Part shown: one piece after another, positions 257-55,792 of the stretch
Position numbering within the stretch: position 1 is the first letter of the stretch
Layout of the letters: each line of letters opens with the position of its first letter
Origin: Escherichia coli
GTDB taxonomy: Bacteria; Pseudomonadota; Gammaproteobacteria; Enterobacterales; Enterobacteriaceae
Assembly: GCF_050320075.1 (NCBI RefSeq)
Contig: NZ_CP190018.1
Reading direction: 5' to 3' (one strand)
DNA length: 64,000 nt
Notes under the pieces: model-generated
The model's database searches: none
What the model was told of the DNA's origin: nothing
What the model saw: the letters and a program-made list of their open reading frames with translations, nothing else
Translations under genes and position numbers: made by a program

Positions 257-1177
257 TTACGCCAGAACCCTCTCTAGCTTATTCACCGCCGCCACATACT
301 TCGCCGGATTTTTATCTTTAAGCACCGCCAGATTGCGTTGCTTCCAGCGAATAGCCGGAAGATGCTGAATTTCAGGATAGCGATACCGCGACCAGTCAGG
401 GCTGTTTTGCTTAAAACTGAGCAAGAACTCGCGATCCAGATCCGTAAGATGTGACTTCAACGCCTGCGGCAGCAAAGTCGTTACTGACAGAAGCGATTCC
501 AGCGACGTTTCCTGTTGCGTCATCCCTGAAAATTCCTGCGCGTACAACGTGGCGATCCGCTCTGTATCCCAGTTTGGAGCCAGCAACTCGGCGATGGGGC
601 GGGGATGGCCTGCCAGATAACAAAGAAAACCGTCAAAGATCTCCCGCATCAGTCCCGGTTTCTCCAGCATATTCAGCACATCAAACAGATCGCGCGGGTG
701 CTGACGATCAAGCGCAGCGCAGATTTTACCGCCATAAAGATCCGCCAGCGAGACGACACTCATGGTGGTGAAGCCATACTCCATTTCCACACGTTCGCAC
801 ACAGGCATTTCTGCCGGAGGCAACAACAGCCCGCGCCAGACCGGGCTAACCTCGATCTTAATCTTTGCATCAGCGGTATTCACAATGATGCGCTTTTCAT
901 CCGCTTTATTTTCCTGCCGAATCGCGGTGATCCCCGGTCTGCCGTTCAGCGATGCAGTAATCCTCTTCAAAGCGTCGTTGATAGCCGCCAAATCAGTATC
1001 GCGATCCGCAAAGCTCTTGTACGCCAGATCAATATCCACCGACAGACGGGGAAAATCCTGCACAAACAAATTGATTGCGGTGCCGCCTTTCAACGCGAAA
1101 CAGGACTCCTTCGCCACATACGGCAGAGCGGCCATCAACAGTTTGACCTGCCGGGCATAGCTATCACGCAGATCCAT
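257..1177 (-). CDS. abiEii: AbiEii-like nucleotidyltransferase toxin (type IV TA / abortive infection)
   Basis: 306-aa ORF; N-terminal 'KGGTAINLF...DIDL' nucleotidyltransferase-type motif typical of AbiEii/DUF1814; 14-nt overlap with upstream partner gene. Confidence 0.65.
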   Translation of the reverse strand: MDLRDSYARQVKLLMAALPYVAKESCFALKGGTAINLFVQDFPRLSVDIDLAYKSFADRDTDLAAINDALKRITASLNGRPGITAIRQENKADEKRIIVNTADAKIKIEVSPVWRGLLLPPAEMPVCERVEMEYGFTTMSVVSLADLYGGKICAALDRQHPRDLFDVLNMLEKPGLMREIFDGFLCYLAGHPRPIAELLAPNWDTERIATLYAQEFSGMTQQETSLESLLSVTTLLPQALKSHLTDLDREFLLSFKQNSPDWSRYRYPEIQHLPAIRWKQRNLAVLKDKNPAKYVAAVNKLERVLA

Positions 1178-1967
1178 CTTCGACTCCTTCCGGTTTAAAT
1201 GCGCGTGGAACAGTAATTTGATAATCCGGCTCCAGCCAGCCGCCGGGTATGATTTGCCGCTTTCCCGTACCTGTTTCTATACCGCTTTGATCAATATACT
1301 GAAAATAAGGGTGTCCATTACGCCGGGCAAGGTAAAGCATCACCCGGTTGGTTTTAACCGAATGGCTGGCGCGAAGCAGTGCCTGCAATTTGCGTGGGCT
1401 GAGAAGATTCAACCCCTGAAACAGAGCATCGGCATGTTCGAACGAGATTAACGAAGGAACGCCGCAGGCGATCTCATACGCGGCCAGTTCCGGAACACTG
1501 CCTGCTAACTGGCGGTCGCCAATTTTCAGTTCCGTAGTAAATGGCGTTACATCAGCGGTAAGGCCTGACGTATACAGCGTGACAAACGTTGCGGATTGTT
1601 CAAAGGCAGAAAACCATCCCGGCAGTTTGACGTAAGCCGGAAGCGCGAGCCAGACCTGCGGCTTACCCTGTTCGGTATAGTGCGCATGACCCTGAAGCGC
1701 AAGGCTGGTTAGCCCCGCCACCCGAACAGGCTTTTCCCACTGCGATTGCAGGCAGTAAACCGCATCCACCCAATCCGGTTCACGACCCGTCCGGCAGTAT
1801 ACGCCGTGAGCGATCCGCCTGAGCCAGCCATTCTTCACATAGAGATAAGAGAGCTTACGATCTATGCCGTTGCGGGTAAGCCATGACTGGAGCAGCACCT
1901 GGCCGGGTAGCGTGTGCTGCATCAGCCAGTTTAGATAGTTTGGCAACTGTCGCCTCTGAATAGACAT
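1164..1967 (-). CDS. abiEi: AbiEi-like antitoxin/transcriptional regulator
   Basis: 267-aa ORF immediately upstream of and overlapping abiEii; size and operon position typical of AbiEi; assignment rests mainly on context. Confidence 0.5.
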   Translation of the reverse strand: MSIQRRQLPNYLNWLMQHTLPGQVLLQSWLTRNGIDRKLSYLYVKNGWLRRIAHGVYCRTGREPDWVDAVYCLQSQWEKPVRVAGLTSLALQGHAHYTEQGKPQVWLALPAYVKLPGWFSAFEQSATFVTLYTSGLTADVTPFTTELKIGDRQLAGSVPELAAYEIACGVPSLISFEHADALFQGLNLLSPRKLQALLRASHSVKTNRVMLYLARRNGHPYFQYIDQSGIETGTGKRQIIPGGWLEPDYQITVPRAFKPEGVEDGSA

Positions 1968-2261
1968 TAGTACAAATATTTAAACCAGTGTAGATTCAGG
2001 GATACGCCACAGCAAGAAATAGTTTACTTATTCCTCATTTTGTCGACTAAAAATCGACATTAAACAAAAAATTCAAACTTAATCACTTTCGGGAAAAATG
2101 TGACAAATATATGCTCGGACTGGTTGCGGGGAGCGTGTAACATGGATACAAATCAAAATTATTGCCAGCCTCACTGATGGATTACTGGTGTCAAGAGCCC
2201 CCCTTCGGGCATGAAACGGCTGGCTAATTCTGTACAGACTGTAATCTAAGGACGATAACGC

Positions 2262-5200
2262 ATGACATATCAGGCAATTTTCACTGGCTGGGATGATCTG
2301 ACGATTGAAGACCTTCTGGTCGCTTACCGGAAAGCAAAAGCCGATAGCTTCTTTGAGAATACATTTCCTGTTGCTATCAAATTTGCCGAGTATGAGCAGG
2401 AATTACTTGAAAACCTGCAAAAACTCTTAGATCTTTTGCAGAGCGAAGATGGATTCAGTAGCAATAAGAAGTTGATTGGCAAATTTCGATTGTTACCGAA
2501 AAAATTAACCACAAAGAAAAAACATGAATCCCAAAATGGACACGTCCACTTTTCTAATCCTAAACGAGCAGCCGACCATTTATTTAATAATTTTGATCTG
2601 ATACCAGAGTTTCGTATTATTGGTGACTTCCCGGTTGATAGTCACATTATCTCTGCACTATGGATTAACATGGTCGGGCATAAATTTGATGCCAGCTTAG
2701 ATAACTGTTGCTATGGCGCGCGGCTAAAGCGTATTCGTAATGATGAATTATTTAGCAATGAGCAGGATAATCCATTCCATATCAGTGCCGTGGGTTCTTT
2801 TAGCCCCTACTTCCAGCCCTACCAAAAATGGCGTGGTGATGGCTTAAAAGCTATACGTGACGAGTTGGAAAAAGATCGTGACATTATCGCCGCCTCACTG
2901 GATTTAAAAAGTTACTATCATTTTATTGATCCACTGGCTATAACCTCTGATGATCTCTATAACACACTAAACATAAAACTGACTGAGGATGAAAAAGCGT
3001 TTACTGCACAGTTAGCAGTATTCTTAAAGCACTGGTCTGACGGCGCAGCGGCATTTGGAAAGAAAATAGCGTACAAAACACCTGTTATTAATGGTGGTCT
3101 GGTCATTGGATTAACAGCCAGTCGGATCATTTCAAATATATTGCTACACCATTGGGATAAATTAGTCATTGAAAAACTATCACCAATTCACTACGGTCGT
3201 TATGTCGATGATATGTTCCTTGTAATACGCGATACAGGGACAATTACTAATAATCACGAATTTATGTTATTGCTGCAAGATAGGCTTGGCAATGATTGCG
3301 TTTATTTGAAAAACGAGCAAAAACAAATATGGCAAATACAGCAGGGCGAGCATTTCCAGGGTAAGACCACCATCCAGTTACAATCCGATAAGCAAAAACT
3401 TTTCGTGCTTCAAGGGAGGGCTGGAATAGACCTGCTCGACAGTATCGAAAAGGAGATCTACGAGCTTTCTAGTGAACACCGCTTGATGCCTTCACCGGAT
3501 CAACTGGAACACTCCACCGCAGCTAAAGTCCTTTCCGCTGCCGGTAGTGTAGGTGAAAATGCCGATACTCTGCGCCGTGCGGATGGATTAACCATTCGTC
3601 GTTTGGGCTGGTCACTGCAATTACGCTACGTTGAAACACTGGCACGAGATCTGCCTCCAAGTGAATGGAAAGAACAGCGGGAAGAGTTTTATCAGTTTGC
3701 CTACAACCATATTCTTAGGGCTGATAATCTATTTGCACATTTTAGTTATCTGCCAAGGCTGCTTGGCTTTGCTATCAGTATGAATGAATGGCAGCACGCG
3801 GAAAAAATTGTACTTAAAGCTTACGAATCCATCAACCTGTTGGCATCGGTGATTACTTCAGGTAAGGAAGTGAATATAAATGGTTGCAAAACTCGAGCAG
3901 TAAATGATCTTTGGCGCTGTATAAAAGGCACATTAAGCTGGCTATTTGTTGATGCAGCGACACGATATTACAGTCCTGACAGATTATTTCTTGATAAACG
4001 TTCAAAGAAAGAAGAGTGCCTTGCGGATACATTTTTTAATCATATTTCACAAAGTCTGACGAATCTAAAGGATTTACTGGATCTTCGCTTTGATTCAGCA
4101 GATTTTTATTTAAAAGCGCCATTGGTAGCTCGAGCTGATTTAGCAAAGGAACCTTATAAACAGATCGTAAAGAGTCAGTCGGCAGAAAAACTTGTTAATC
4201 AGCGTGATAGTAAAAAAGAAGTTAAAATACTGAAATTAATGAGCGACTCATCGCTTATTGATATTGACGTTATTAAGCTATTTTTGAAATCAACCAAGAA
4301 TACCCGACTGGAAAAAGTGGCTAAAGGAAATCGTAAGAACGAAAGTTACCTACCTTACATTTTCCCTACACGTCCTTTAACACCCGCTGAAATATCAGAA
4401 CTGGCCCCCGAATGTGTTGGATTACCCTCCACATCCGACAAAAAACCAGATGAGAGACCGTCCACCATTTGGGCAAAATATACTCAAGCATTACGCGGAG
4501 TATGGATCAAACCGACGTTGCTAGCATCGGAGCAGGACTCAGATGAAGCGACAAAAAAAGCTCGGCCTAAGAAATTCATTCATATTGGCACAGACAGGAA
4601 ACATAAAGTTGTCGTTGCGCTAACCAGCATTAAAACAGAGGAGGACGACTGGGCTAAAATGGCCTGCAATAAATCTAACTTGTCCCGTTCAAGGTACCAG
4701 CGGATTTCTGAACTGGTTAATGCAACATTGAAACTATCTCCTAAACCTGATTATGTTTTATTCCCTGAGCTTTCAATCCCGTTACGCTGGGTTAACAGTA
4801 TTGCTGATCGTTTGAGTTCGGCGGGTATCAGTCTAATTGCGGGAACAGAATACCGCCACTTAGACGATAATCAACTGAAGAGTGAGGCCGTACTTGTCCT
4901 TTCAGATAACAGACTCGGCTATCCAGCGAGTGTCAAAATATGGCAACCCAAGCTGGAACCCGCCGTAGGTGAAGATGAGGCATTATTTTCAATTTATGGT
5001 AAGTCTTGGGATTCGACACTTAATGTTAAACAACGTAAGCCGGTATATATTCATCACGGCGTCAATTTTGGCGTTATGATTTGCTCTGAACTCCAGAATA
5101 GTAAAGCGAGGATCCGTTTTCAGGGCGCACTCGATGCATTAATGGTATTGAGCTGGAATAAAGATCTAGATACGTTTGCATCGTTGATTGAATCAGCAGC

Positions 5201-5471
5201 GCTGGATATTCATGCCTATACTATTTTAGTGAATAACCGAAAATACGGCGATAGTCGCGTACGTTCCCCGGCAAAAGAACCCTTTATGCGTGATATTGCT
5301 CGTGTGAAGGGCGGTGATAATGACTTTGTGGTCGCTGCAACGCTGGATATCGACTCGTTAAGGGCATTTCAGAGCAGGGCAAAACGCTGGCCTAAAGGCG
5401 GCGATAAATTCAAACCGTTACCTGAAGGATTCCAGTTGGCAAAGAACCGCAAAAAGCTACCGCCAAAATAA
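2262..5471 (+). CDS. Reverse transcriptase-nitrilase fusion protein (defence-associated RT, DRT type 1 / UG1-like)
   Basis: 1069-aa ORF; RT motifs A 'SLDLKSYYHF' (aa ~211-220), B 'NGGLVIGLTASRIISNILL' (aa ~277-295), C 'YVDD' (aa 314-317, nt 3201-3212); C-terminal carbon-nitrogen hydrolase signature 'FPELSIP' (E836) and 'GVMICSE' (C941); divergent from AbiE pair. Confidence 0.7.
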   Translation: MTYQAIFTGWDDLTIEDLLVAYRKAKADSFFENTFPVAIKFAEYEQELLENLQKLLDLLQSEDGFSSNKKLIGKFRLLPKKLTTKKKHESQNGHVHFSNPKRAADHLFNNFDLIPEFRIIGDFPVDSHIISALWINMVGHKFDASLDNCCYGARLKRIRNDELFSNEQDNPFHISAVGSFSPYFQPYQKWRGDGLKAIRDELEKDRDIIAASLDLKSYYHFIDPLAITSDDLYNTLNIKLTEDEKAFTAQLAVFLKHWSDGAAAFGKKIAYKTPVINGGLVIGLTASRIISNILLHHWDKLVIEKLSPIHYGRYVDDMFLVIRDTGTITNNHEFMLLLQDRLGNDCVYLKNEQKQIWQIQQGEHFQGKTTIQLQSDKQKLFVLQGRAGIDLLDSIEKEIYELSSEHRLMPSPDQLEHSTAAKVLSAAGSVGENADTLRRADGLTIRRLGWSLQLRYVETLARDLPPSEWKEQREEFYQFAYNHILRADNLFAHFSYLPRLLGFAISMNEWQHAEKIVLKAYESINLLASVITSGKEVNINGCKTRAVNDLWRCIKGTLSWLFVDAATRYYSPDRLFLDKRSKKEECLADTFFNHISQSLTNLKDLLDLRFDSADFYLKAPLVARADLAKEPYKQIVKSQSAEKLVNQRDSKKEVKILKLMSDSSLIDIDVIKLFLKSTKNTRLEKVAKGNRKNESYLPYIFPTRPLTPAEISELAPECVGLPSTSDKKPDERPSTIWAKYTQALRGVWIKPTLLASEQDSDEATKKARPKKFIHIGTDRKHKVVVALTSIKTEEDDWAKMACNKSNLSRSRYQRISELVNATLKLSPKPDYVLFPELSIPLRWVNSIADRLSSAGISLIAGTEYRHLDDNQLKSEAVLVLSDNRLGYPASVKIWQPKLEPAVGEDEALFSIYGKSWDSTLNVKQRKPVYIHHGVNFGVMICSELQNSKARIRFQGALDALMVLSWNKDLDTFASLIESAALDIHAYTILVNNRKYGDSRVRSPAKEPFMRDIARVKGGDNDFVVAATLDIDSLRAFQSRAKRWPKGGDKFKPLPEGFQLAKNRKKLPPK

Positions 5472-5633
5472 GAAACTGATTTTCGCTATTAATAATCAGG
5501 GTATTTTTGCGTGAGATGTTGGTAAACATGATGTAGCCCTTGCCACTCATGACCAATCGCAGTATCTTTCTCCCGCGCCTGCAAAATCAGGCGTCGGGAT
5601 TAGCCTCCTGAAGAAATCTTATCGGCGACACAT

Positions 5634-5654
5634 GACGCGCCAGCGTCTTTTTTT
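5634..5654 (+). terminator. Rho-independent terminator downstream of RT-nitrilase gene
   Basis: Hairpin gacgc-gcca-gcgtc followed by a run of 7 T. Confidence 0.5.
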
Positions 5655-5817
5655 GTGTTGTTCGCACGGTTACATCTCAATGGTGGGCCGGGCGGGGGCG
5701 TCGCAAGACGCGCCAGTGTCCGATAAGGCTGGTAAGGCTAACCCTGCCCGGTTCCACCACCCGCGAGATTAGCCTCTCCGGTGGTGGCTTGAACACCCAC
5801 TTATCGGAGGTTGCCCT

Positions 5818-7142: not shown

Positions 7143-9476
7143 TCAGGTTGTTGCAGGGTCGTCACATTTTGGCAGCCAGTCGCCGTAGCTTTCCTCTTTC
7201 AGCGTCAGGTTGGTCTGTATCCCCTGTTTGGTATGGCGCTTCTCGTAATTCAGTCCGTATTCCTTCAGCATCACCGGCAGCCCCAGCCCGAACATTTTCA
7301 GACTGAGTACATTCCGGTAGCCGTTTGCCTCCATGTAGGCCAGATAGGCGTGATAGAGGTATTTACGGTAATTACGCGGGATGATACTGGCGTTCCCCAT
7401 ATACATGCCGCTGGTCTGCGGCAGGGTTTCCAGATAGCCGATAAAATCAAACGTCGGGTCGGCATCCCGTTTGATGTTCAGCGCCTCGTCTGAGTTCTGC
7501 TGGGACTGAAGCAGTGACCGGGCGAGCATCGGGTCGCTGAACTTCTGCATCAGGTGACGCACGATGACCGCCAGCTCGCGGGTGATTTTGTCCTTAAGCT
7601 GCGGGTCGCGCTCCTGCGGGGCTATCTGTTCCGGGAAGTGAATAATCACCCGCCGGCGTGACACGCCGCCGCTGCGGTCGGTGAAGCGCATCGGGTTATT
7701 GTTCACGGCCAGAATTACCGCCGGGATATGCGTGGAGTATGCATCCCGGTATTTCGGGTCAACGGACACCGCATCGCCGCCGGTGATGGCCTTGAGTCCG
7801 GCACCGTCGCCGCTCCATTTTTCCTGGTCCGGCAGGCGTATCAGTGAGAAGCCAGTTAACGCGGCACGTTCACGCGGGGATTCCAGCGTCTCGATGGTGG
7901 CCGACGTGGCGTTATCCTCCCCGGCCAGCAGGGTGGCTATTTCGGCCATGATACTTTTGCCGCTGCCGCCGGGACCGGTCACCTCCAGAAAGAGCTGCCA
8001 GTCGTAGCGGTTTGCCAGCACCATAAACAGTGCGGCCAGAATCACGTCGCGTTTTTCCGCACGGCCACCGGCGGCACGGTCAAGCCAGCGCCAGAACGCG
8101 GGGGCGTGGGTCTCCAGCGTTTCACCGTCCACCGGCGGGGTGAAATCCACATCGCACAGGGTGCGCATCCAGTGTGACGGACTGTGCGGGTGGAACGTGC
8201 CGTTCTGCGTGTCGAGCACGCCGTTACGAAAGCCAATCAGGCGGCGGGAGGGGGCTTCCTGCTGCGGAATAATCAGCTTCAGGGTGTCCACCACGGAGGC
8301 CACCTTCCCGGAGGAGAACGGCGCGCGCAGACGCTGAAACAGCCCGGCCACATCCCGGGCAAAGTCCTGTGGTGGCAGCACCTTCCAGACACCATTTTCA
8401 TAACGGGACAGAAGCTGGCCGTTGGCATCGACCGCGAGCGCCTCGCCGTAATGCTCATAGATACGCATGGCCTTTTCGCTGGTACTCATGGCGGAAAACT
8501 CCGCTTCGCTCATGGTGTCGAACGGGCTTTCAGCCGGTGGCCGGATGGCATCATAAATGGCCTTACGGGTGGCTTCCCCGCCGTACTGCGTGAAGGCATC
8601 ATTCCAGTCACCGAAGACCGGCGGCAGGGCAACAACGCCCTCACACGCATCTGCGGCTGCGGCGGCTTTTTTCTGGCCGTCACCGCTGAGGTCACGGTCT
8701 GCGGCAAGGACAATCTGACAGGCCGGATGCTTCTGCCGGGCAAGGCTGGCCAGAGAAAGGAGGTTCACGGAAGAAAGCGCCACCATCACCGTTTCACCGG
8801 TCAGGTGATGTACGGTAAGTGCGGTCGCGTATCCCTCCGCTATCCACAGACGTTTTCCGGCCTGATTCTGTCCTTCAAGGGTGTGACAGGTGCCCCTGAC
8901 CTGTCCGCCTTTCAGGGTGCGCTTACGGCCGTCAGCACTGATTAACTGAAGGTTAACCAGTTCGCCGCTGTCGTCATACAGTGGCACCACAAGGTCACCG
9001 GCACGCCAGCTCACGCCACCGGCTCTGTGTGTGCCGGTCAGCATCCGGCATTCCCGGCCGGGAAAGCCCTTGCGGGTCAGGTAGGCGTTACCGGTTCCGG
9101 GACGGGTTTTCGCCATCAGGGTTTGTGCCAGTGCGGCGGCGTTCTTCCGGGCAGCGTCTGTTTCAGCACCGGCGGCAGCCGTCACTGCCGGGTCAGCCGG
9201 GGGCAGGCTGCCGGTCACGGCAGCCACCTTTGCTGCCGCGTCGGACGGGGAAACACCAAACACCTTTTCAACCAGTTTCAGGCCGTCACCGGCACCACAC
9301 TGATTGCAGTACCAGGTGCCGCGCCCCTCCCTGTCATCAAAACGGAAGCGGTCACTCCCGCCACAGACCGGACAGGGCTGATGACGGTTTTTCAGCACCT
9401 GAATCCCCAGCGCCGGGAGAATACGCGGCCAGTGGCCGAGCGCATGGCTGACGGTGGCGGTTACGTTCATTTTCAT
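7143..9476 (-). CDS. P4 alpha-type primase/helicase replication protein
   Basis: 777 aa; N-terminal zinc-binding 'CPVCGG...CNQCG' primase region; Walker A 'GPGGSGKS'. Confidence 0.85.
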   Translation of the reverse strand: MKMNVTATVSHALGHWPRILPALGIQVLKNRHQPCPVCGGSDRFRFDDREGRGTWYCNQCGAGDGLKLVEKVFGVSPSDAAAKVAAVTGSLPPADPAVTAAAGAETDAARKNAAALAQTLMAKTRPGTGNAYLTRKGFPGRECRMLTGTHRAGGVSWRAGDLVVPLYDDSGELVNLQLISADGRKRTLKGGQVRGTCHTLEGQNQAGKRLWIAEGYATALTVHHLTGETVMVALSSVNLLSLASLARQKHPACQIVLAADRDLSGDGQKKAAAAADACEGVVALPPVFGDWNDAFTQYGGEATRKAIYDAIRPPAESPFDTMSEAEFSAMSTSEKAMRIYEHYGEALAVDANGQLLSRYENGVWKVLPPQDFARDVAGLFQRLRAPFSSGKVASVVDTLKLIIPQQEAPSRRLIGFRNGVLDTQNGTFHPHSPSHWMRTLCDVDFTPPVDGETLETHAPAFWRWLDRAAGGRAEKRDVILAALFMVLANRYDWQLFLEVTGPGGSGKSIMAEIATLLAGEDNATSATIETLESPRERAALTGFSLIRLPDQEKWSGDGAGLKAITGGDAVSVDPKYRDAYSTHIPAVILAVNNNPMRFTDRSGGVSRRRVIIHFPEQIAPQERDPQLKDKITRELAVIVRHLMQKFSDPMLARSLLQSQQNSDEALNIKRDADPTFDFIGYLETLPQTSGMYMGNASIIPRNYRKYLYHAYLAYMEANGYRNVLSLKMFGLGLPVMLKEYGLNYEKRHTKQGIQTNLTLKEESYGDWLPKCDDPATT

Positions 9477-9490
9477 GGTGTTGTTCTCCT

Positions 9491-9811
9491 TCAGTGCAGT
9501 ACCGGCGCTTTTATGTGACGGGCACAGAGTTCATCCATCACAACCAGCCCGAGAAAGGACAGCGACGGCGCGGCCTTCAGGGGGCCGGATTCCATTAAAT
9601 CTTCCAGCAGGGCACAGGCTATCTGACGCCCTTTTTCCTCACCGTGCTGGCGCAGATAAAAGCCTTCCAGCTCAGCGGCGATGGCCGCCTCCAGTGATTC
9701 AAGGGTGAGATGCGGGTAGCGGTGCTGACGTTCGCACACGGTCAGCCAGGCACAGGCGACAGCGCGACGGTAAAGGGCTGCGCGTAAGACGGGCGGTAAG
9801 GGTGTTTTCAT
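9491..9811 (-). CDS. P4 orf106-like hypothetical protein
   Basis: 106-aa ORF between alpha and orf151-like gene, matching P4 gene order and size. Confidence 0.5.
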
Positions 9812-55715: not shown

Positions 55716-55762
55716 ATGGTGCCGATAATAGGAGTCGAACCTACGACCTTCGCATTACGAAT
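55716..55762. repeat. attL core: 47-bp identical to 16849-16895 (within tRNA-Thr 3' half)
   Basis: Exact 47-bp direct repeat. Confidence 0.85.
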
Positions 55763-55792
55763 GCGCTGCTCTACCAACTGAGCTATATCGGC
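55717..55792 (-). tRNA. thrW: tRNA-Thr
   Basis: Reverse complement reads 'GCCGATATAGCTCAGTTGGTAGAGCAGCGCATTCGTAATGCGAAGGTCGTAGGTTCGACTCCTATTATCGGCACCA' with CGT anticodon context. Confidence 0.85.

Follow-up and report, generated by a model that had tools for sequence, protein, structure and literature searches.

We analysed a 64,000-nucleotide (nt) stretch of Escherichia coli DNA (RefSeq assembly GCF_050320075.1, contig NZ_CP190018.1; hereafter the window), in which two overlapping genes, abiEi and abiEii, lie divergent from a gene encoding a reverse transcriptase (RT)–nitrilase of 1069 amino acids (aa). The stretch is chromosomal and shows 100% identity to strain YZLc1-3. The profile matches, catalytic motifs, fold matches, conserved pairing and purifying selection of the two genes argue, with a probability of roughly 0.85, that positions 257-2078 make up a self-contained and functional AbiE cassette of the AbiEi_3 sub-class, which would encode a tRNA-targeting toxin neutralised by AbiEi and would work independently of the RT-nitrilase. 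As a member of the well-studied AbiE family the pair is ordinary and has been annotated before: both genes are named in RefSeq, and public defence-system hidden Markov models (HMMs) cover both of them end to end. The only mildly new element is the predicted operator architecture of the AbiEi_3 sub-class.

The abiEi product matches the Pfam families AbiEi_3_N (E-value 3e-29) and AbiEi_3 (8e-36), and the abiEii product matches AbiEii (PF08843; 3e-35, with 122.6 bits against a curated cut-off of 22.5). PADLOC gave a near end-to-end match for AbiEi (5e-80) and a match of AbiEii to PDLC02290 (4e-116) that spans positions 3-289 of 290; it recognised the divergent 1069-aa neighbour as RT_UG5-nitrilase (E = 0). 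NCBIfam had no model for either AbiE protein. An initial annotation of this stretch, made from the sequence, had proposed an AbiEi/AbiEii pair and an HMM search for AbiE domains as a check. This search has now been run and both genes match AbiE profiles; the fold matches to MenT4 and Rv2827c/AbiEi given below reinforce this identification. The overlapping two-gene arrangement that it described is also found, and the two open reading frames (ORFs) are not chance ORFs.

The two genes overlap by 14 nt (1164-1177), and the AAGGAG in Table 1 is a strong Shine-Dalgarno sequence 6 nt ahead of the abiEii ATG; its placement inside the 3' end of abiEi, together with the overlap, fits translational coupling. 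The overlap geometry is identical in five related loci, including those of Salmonella, Photorhabdus and Brenneria. The start of abiEi is most likely the TTG at 1946 and not the in-frame ATG at 1967, because the TTG is the start in RefSeq and in the Salmonella, Photorhabdus and Brenneria gene calls (all 260 aa) and is preceded by a conserved Shine-Dalgarno sequence, AGAGG (1957..1953), while the ATG is not conserved among relatives. The RT gene begins (ATG at 2262) 315 base pairs (bp) from this TTG and 294 bp from the ATG.

Table 1. Features of the abiE locus, in window coordinates, and conserved motifs of AbiEii, in residue numbers
Feature	Position	Strand	Detail	Remark
abiEi	1164..1946	-	260 aa, TTG start at 1946	AbiEi_3-type antitoxin and predicted repressor
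abiEi, alternative start	1164..1967	-	267 aa, in-frame ATG at 1967	
abiEii	257..1177	-	306 aa	DUF1814 nucleotidyltransferase, predicted toxin
Shine-Dalgarno AAGGAG of abiEii	1189..1184	-	within the abiEi 3' end	read from the sequence
Candidate abiE promoter	2015..1987	-	-35 TTGCTG (2015..2010), 17-nt spacer, -10 TACACT (1992..1987)	prediction only
Proximal candidate operator	1929..1985	-	GTTTA (1985..1981) and TAAAC (1933..1929, abiEi codons 5-6), 52 nt apart	
Distal candidate operator	2022..2078	-	TAAAC (2026..2022), GTTTA (2065..2061), GTTTG (2078..2074)	
Chimeric spacer	2079..2261		2079-2170 former hsdR upstream sequence; 2171-2200 junction of 30 unassigned bases; 2201-2261 kwaB 3' remnant	
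AbiEii motif hG[G/S]-x15-DhD	G31-G32-x15-D48-I-D50			invariant, 36 homologues
AbiEii motif around D48	R44-L-S46-V-D48		R44, S46, D48, D50	invariant, 36 homologues
AbiEii motif K-x6-R	K151, R158			invariant, 36 homologues
AbiEii motif +DxxD	R162-D163-L-F-D166		R162, D163, D166	invariant, 36 homologues

Toxin, antitoxin and proposed mechanism

AbiEii has all of motifs I-IV of the pol-beta nucleotidyltransferases (NTases), namely hG[G/S]-x15-DhD, K-x6-R and +DxxD, so that the NTase-type motif reported earlier for the downstream gene is real; the key residues are invariant in an alignment of 36 homologues with 44-91% identity. The motif definitions are those of Dy et al. (PMC3985639), whose mutagenesis showed the motifs to be needed for the toxicity of Streptococcus agalactiae AbiEii, a protein in which all four have the same spacing as in the E. 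coli toxin. Ser46, two residues ahead of the first catalytic Asp (D48), is likewise invariant, and corresponds in position to the phospho-acceptors T65 of S. agalactiae AbiEii (R63...D67) and S78 of MenT3, and to the S46 named for Serratia AbiE-T2.

The AlphaFold2 (AF2) model of AbiEii (mean predicted local distance difference test score, pLDDT, 95.6) adopts the MenT/DUF1814 fold: its top Foldseek matches in the Protein Data Bank (PDB) are MenT4 (6Y56; E-value 1e-7, template modelling (TM) score 0.60), JHP933 (4OK0; 3e-6) and MenT1 (8AN5_B). For AbiEi (pLDDT 92.9) the best PDB folds are Rv2827c (1ZEL; E-value 1e-9, TM score 0.56-0.59) and S. agalactiae AbiEi (6Y8Q; 2e-6). At the level of sequence, neither of the two proteins nor a profile of 14 toxin sequences retrieved a meaningful match from the PDB.

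In the AbiEi model a winged helix (residues 4-52) is followed by two helices, then by a conserved loop and finally by a C-terminal domain, and by sequence and model the protein is a COG5340/AbiEi-type antitoxin that has a winged helix-turn-helix (wHTH) at its N terminus and a domain at its C terminus (DUF2893 is one of the COG5340 partners listed by Dy et al.; PMC3985639). In the loop, Q85-G86-H-A-H89-Y90, residues G86, H89 and Y90 are nearly invariant. By topology this loop would correspond to the alpha5-beta4 loop of S. agalactiae AbiEi, which enters the toxin active site in the complex (10.64898/2026.01.19.700257). After AbiEi and Rv2827c, the model also weakly matches the minimal NTase folds TM1012, ANT(2'')-Ia and JHP933 (Foldseek probability 0.5-0.95). 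Our guess is that these matches belong to the C-terminal domain (residues ~97-250), and the antitoxin may derive from an NTase-like fold.

Three groups of characterized relatives are informative. AbiE-2 (AbiE-A2/AbiE-T2) of Serratia sp. ATCC 39006 likewise combines an AbiEi_3 antitoxin with a DUF1814 toxin, and its authors name Ser46 of AbiE-T2 as the conserved equivalent of the phospho-acceptor in MenT3 (PMC7725324). In E. coli the AbiE-2 toxin causes a 10^6-fold loss of viability, from which no antitoxin but its own gives rescue, and it disturbs the tRNA pools (PMC7725324). Homologues from the genus Serratia are ~55% identical to the window toxin, a figure that is not for ATCC 39006 itself; AbiE-2 differs in genomic context, and the E. 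coli toxin falls 3 aa short of its 309-aa relatives. The best structural match for both partners, MenA4-MenT4 (Rv2827c-Rv2826c) of Mycobacterium tuberculosis, shares with the window pair an antitoxin-first operon, a wHTH followed by a C-terminal domain and the pol-beta NTase motifs, but identity is 16-18%, the operators are unrelated, and Rv2827c is assigned to DUF2005 (PMC3985639) whereas the window antitoxin belongs to AbiEi_3. In the same family, MenT3 adds pyrimidines to tRNA 3'-CCA ends (PMC7450476, as cited in PMC7725324).

The AbiE systems of S. agalactiae and Lactococcus lactis resemble the window pair in having an overlapping bicistronic operon and, two positions ahead of the first catalytic Asp, a Ser or Thr. 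In a January 2026 preprint, AbiEii of S. agalactiae is shown to be bound by AbiEi, which induces its auto-phosphorylation at T65; AbiE is there reclassed as type VII (10.64898/2026.01.19.700257). There are also differences: in S. agalactiae the antitoxin is COG5340/DUF4095 with a solved chain of 195 residues, compared with an AbiEi_3 protein of 260 aa here, and the genes overlap by 4 nt instead of 14. The S. agalactiae and L. lactis antitoxins are autorepressors acting on repeats in their own promoters, whereas in the window there are only predicted half-sites; the S. agalactiae operator consists of two adjacent 23-bp inverted repeats, while the candidate half-sites here are spread over ~150 bp, with one in coding sequence.

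Growth arrest by the toxin, and neutralisation of the toxin by its cognate antitoxin, have been shown for Serratia AbiE-2, S. agalactiae AbiE and MenT3, and the purifying selection on the window pair (see below) is consistent with such a function. In our reading, abiEi and abiEii would be transcribed as one antitoxin-first operon and be translationally coupled through their overlap. By analogy with these systems, free AbiEii would act as a Mg2+-dependent pol-beta-type NTase that adds nucleotides to the 3' acceptor ends of tRNAs, and this modification would block translation and arrest growth. The N-terminal winged helix of AbiEi would repress the abiE promoter via the repeated half-sites, and its C-terminal domain and linker loop would neutralise AbiEii, most likely through induced auto-phosphorylation of Ser46 beside the catalytic Asp48 and Asp50, that is, by a type VII-like mechanism and not the classical 'type IV' one. 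Phage infection, or loss of the locus, would shift the balance to active toxin and result in abortive infection and/or stabilisation of the island.

Several points weigh against this reading. Four features of the model, namely toxicity, the tRNA target, phosphorylation and phage defence, come by extrapolation from relatives, and the window pair is only 12-20% identical to the solved ones. Nucleotide specificity differs within the family (GTP versus pyrimidines), so the substrate is not predictable. S. agalactiae AbiE expressed in E. coli gave no protection against 32 coliphages (10.64898/2026.01.19.700257), for which reason a phage-defence role of AbiE in E. coli is unproven. The proposed abiE promoter is a weak match to the consensus, and E. 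coli AbiEii ends 3 aa earlier than the 309-aa form of other genera.

Conservation and distribution of the cassette

An AbiEi_3-type gene is found directly upstream of the toxin gene in 87 out of 87 related loci (including 80 species representatives whose toxins have 43-88% identity). Among 5,426 complete E. coli genomes the cassette is present in 832 (at least 90% nucleotide identity), and it is full length in all of them. The ratio of nonsynonymous to synonymous divergence (dN/dS) is 0.06-0.08 for abiEii and 0.10-0.16 for abiEi, including between E. coli alleles (dS 0.15 for the toxin gene); as judged from these ratios, both genes are under purifying selection.

These numbers make it improbable that the pair is an inactive relic, that is, a toxin crippled by its C-terminal nonsense mutation, or a cassette silenced by regulatory decay, which is kept only by hitch-hiking. 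The toxin is 3 residues short owing to a TAA at the Gln307 codon (ST131, a sequence type of E. coli, retains the ancestral TAT-TCT-TAG after that codon), and the surrounding element is degraded. But in the AF2 model the loss is confined to the tip of the final helix, the catalytic residues are all intact, and the low dN/dS of the toxin gene and the full-length cassettes in all 832 genomes argue against decay. Internal stops are common in toxin genes. They occur in three of the 39 abiEii homologues sampled from other species, with the antitoxin gene readable there, which favours a relic and looks like toxin decay in some lineages.

It is possible, though clearly less likely than the functional cassette in the broad sense given above, that AbiE is chiefly an addiction (stabilisation) module of the integrated element, such that cells losing the locus are arrested by residual toxin. 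AbiE stays constant while the neighbouring cargo is deleted or swapped (RT in some genomes, type I restriction-modification (R-M) in others), and it persists in a heavily decayed element. Plasmids carrying its homologues number 289, most of them conjugative or mobilizable, whereas phage genomes contain essentially no homologue. In Streptococcus suis, AbiE is reported to stabilise an integrative and conjugative element (PMC11062541), and the negative result of S. agalactiae AbiE with coliphages points the same way. On the other side, phage protection is known from L. lactis AbiE and from other DUF1814 pairs, and the cassette sits among bona fide defence systems (R-M, Kiwa and a UG5 RT). The two roles are not mutually exclusive.

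One apparent case of plasmid carriage was rejected: NZ_CP146678.1 ('plasmid unnamed3' of E. coli MS 69-1, 64 kb), which carries the abiE-RT block with a 100% identical toxin, contains the chromosomal paoABCD genes and is probably a piece of the chromosome that bears a wrong plasmid label. Hochhauser et al. found AbiEii at E. coli defence hotspots 5, 33 and 37 (PMC10121019). The Salmonella and Photorhabdus cassettes have an unannotated 289-aa gene divergent from abiEi, and the Salmonella cassette alone a further 266-aa gene; these extra genes adjoin Lamassu-type genes (LmuB_C, MC3 and CTD7).

RT-nitrilase neighbour and upstream region

The initial annotation placed the AbiE pair next to the RT-nitrilase gene, with a divergent 294-bp control region shared by the two. 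The adjacency is real and the distance is correct when counted from the ATG at 1967, but the adjacency is not conserved and the spacer is a deletion junction. No RT relative lies within 6 kb of any of the 87 related AbiE loci. The RT is found in 260 E. coli genomes (the whole 6.7-kb block in 258) and is missing from 572 of the 832 AbiE-positive ones, and no AbiE lies near the RT homologues of Yersinia and Vibrio.

Layouts in other genomes account for the spacer. In a Salmonella contig abiEii-abiEi is followed by a divergent hsdR-hsdM-hsdS-kwaA-kwaB-RT row (KwaA and KwaB confirmed by PADLOC), so that ~7.7 kb of R-M and Kiwa genes lie between AbiE and the RT. In E. coli ST131 and ETEC4070 (an enterotoxigenic E. 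coli, ETEC) a type I R-M system (hsdRMS) occupies the RT slot; ST131 is colinear with the Salmonella contig from abiE through hsdS (~82% identity), and the homology of both E. coli loci to the window covers 256-2170 and resumes at 5539. Window positions 1947-2170 correspond to the abiE/hsdR intergenic sequence of the ancestral island, and 2201-2261 match the 3' end of the Salmonella kwaB gene directly ahead of the RT ATG, with the homology running on into the RT gene. The kwaB remnant, together with the ST131 and Salmonella layouts, identifies the window at sequence level as a deletion derivative of a Salmonella-type layout that lacks hsdR through kwaB, ST131 being the derivative without Kiwa and RT. 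On this comparison the '294-bp control region' is a deletion scar, not an evolved shared control region, and the abiE-RT adjacency is an incidental by-product of deletion in a composite defence island.

It is very improbable, and largely refuted, that AbiE and the RT-nitrilase belong to a single system, co-regulated or functionally coupled, that acts via a shared divergent intergenic region. In its favour, the two genes run divergently at a distance of 294-315 bp, with distal AbiEi-type half-sites (2022-2078) in between, and Salmonella holds both in one island. In Sinorhizobium meliloti, too, a UG5 RT is found near an AbiEii-like gene, a proximity that is best read as ordinary defence-island clustering. 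Against these stand the co-occurrence counts (0 of 87 loci; 572 of 832 genomes without the RT), by which a functional linkage was rejected, as well as the Yersinia and Vibrio homologues without AbiE, the ~7.7 kb of intervening genes in Salmonella and the kwaB remnant in the E. coli spacer. In our model of an independent AbiE cassette, AbiE and the RT-nitrilase would both be cargo of a decayed integrative element in the thrW tRNA region, with P4-like immunity RNAs, and would have become neighbours through deletion of the intervening type I R-M and Kiwa genes. The earlier statement that two defence systems are clustered in an island remnant is borne out.

The RT-nitrilase is best analysed as a stand-alone gene that has lost its type I R-M and Kiwa neighbours, not as an AbiE partner, and the abiE locus shows cleanly how different deletions can derive alternative forms from a single composite defence island. 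A 20-nt element, GCGTGTAACATGGATACAAA (2133-2152), is conserved upstream of hsdR in ST131 and Salmonella and is retained upstream of the RT gene in the window. This element may serve the R-M operon as a promoter or regulatory site, and the RT gene probably now depends on the former hsdR promoter region.

Some observations concern the RT-nitrilase itself (2262-5471). Its full-length relatives (69-82% identity) are unusually conserved and come from Enterobacterales, Vibrio, Marinobacter, Microbulbifer, Alteromonas and many metagenomes. An RT homologue (73-76% identity) ends a tightly packed hsdR-hsdM-hsdS-kwaA-kwaB-RT row in Salmonella, Yersinia and Citrobacter. A Pfam search with the 1069-aa protein gave no match at all.

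Upstream of abiEi, nucleotide homology to the cassettes of other genera ends at ~1993, whereas that to other E. coli alleles reaches 2170. The -10 hexamer of the candidate promoter, TACACT, aligns with a perfect TATAAT in Salmonella and Photorhabdus and with TATATT in Brenneria. A sigma-70 scan of 1947-2261 reported no promoter on the abiE strand, and a scan for terminators found none downstream of abiEii.

The same region contains the half-sites of the predicted operator (Table 1). The proximal half-sites flank the 5' untranslated region, Shine-Dalgarno sequence and start codon of abiEi. We counted GTTT[AG] and [CT]AAAC around abiEi in 79 non-redundant loci, which share descent, so that these are counts across related loci: GTTT[AG] is enriched at -40..-31 (44 occurrences) and -120..-101 (40), and [CT]AAAC at -60..-51 (29) and +10..+19 (49), compared with 0-4 per bin for control pentamers. 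GTTT[AG] at -39 and [CT]AAAC at +13, with a spacing of exactly 52 nt, are found together in 43 of the 79 loci, including the window. The codon ahead of the Asn at the +13 site is biased: it is CTA or TTA in 32 out of 34 Leu cases (background 18%) and ATA in 17 out of 18 Ile cases (background 22%), which points to selection on the DNA sequence beyond the protein alone.

To our knowledge, the DNA-binding sites of the AbiEi_3 sub-class have not previously been defined. The GTTTA/TAAAC half-sites are a probable AbiEi_3 operator, and their fixed positions, together with the codon bias, would fit autoregulation by AbiEi; they provide a concrete and cheaply testable operator prediction for this sub-class. 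A bolder version is a long shot: the half-sites would form an AbiEi_3 operator in which one site, in codons 5-6, lies five helical turns from the proximal site, and the distal sites (2022-2078) would also gate the divergent promoter, once that of hsdR and now that of the RT-nitrilase. If true, the AbiE module would couple transcriptionally to whichever defence gene adjoins abiE.

The distal region belongs to a 38-nt direct repeat (71% identity to the copy at 1948-1985), of which Brenneria as well as E. coli ST131 and ETEC conserve the distal copy. It holds a perfect 19-bp palindrome, TGTCGA-N7-TCGACA (2041-2059), and palindrome matches are seen at both 1948-1966 and 2041-2059. As a family operator, the palindrome TGTCG-N9-CGACA was rejected: even the relaxed form, TGTC-N11-GACA, is present in only eight out of 85 related loci. 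Carriers of the relaxed form include six close relatives (five at -20; the ETEC locus with a second, distal copy) and two loci of Rhodobacterales, where it stands at -17 and -20; in one more distant locus its sole position is -166. The palindrome appears to be lineage-specific, and is possibly just Shine-Dalgarno context.

An RNA hairpin, GGUUUA/UAAACU around the abiEi start, was also considered. It forms in silico, but it was rejected in favour of a DNA-level element because its stability does not exceed that of shuffled sequence (z = 0.17) and because in leaderless relatives one of the sites lies upstream of the likely transcription start.

Surrounding element

To the right of the RT gene, Rfam models place c4-a1b1 (the a1b1 targets of C4; just below the gathering score), isrK and the C4 antisense RNA in a row at 5562-5764, overlapping an ORF annotated as 'ash family'. 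The row constitutes the immunity-RNA region of an element of P4/P1 type. Past these RNAs are the ash-family ORF, a 156-aa ORF and an integrase fragment. Taken together, these features resemble what would be left of the immunity region in a P4-like satellite that has decayed.

In ST131 the island frame abuts a tRNA-Thr gene upstream of proA, whereas the only tRNA gene in the window, tRNA-Thr(CGT) at 55717-55792, is ~55 kb from the abiE island. We take both genes to be thrW. The difference in distance points to tandem integrations at a single site. The literature was searched for AbiE in combination with thrW, with no result.

The window also contains an apparently intact P4-like satellite (7143-16700) with primase-helicase, icd-like, ash, ogr/delta, psu and integrase genes. 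A gene for a 461-aa HEPN-domain protein is found in its psu-int hotspot.

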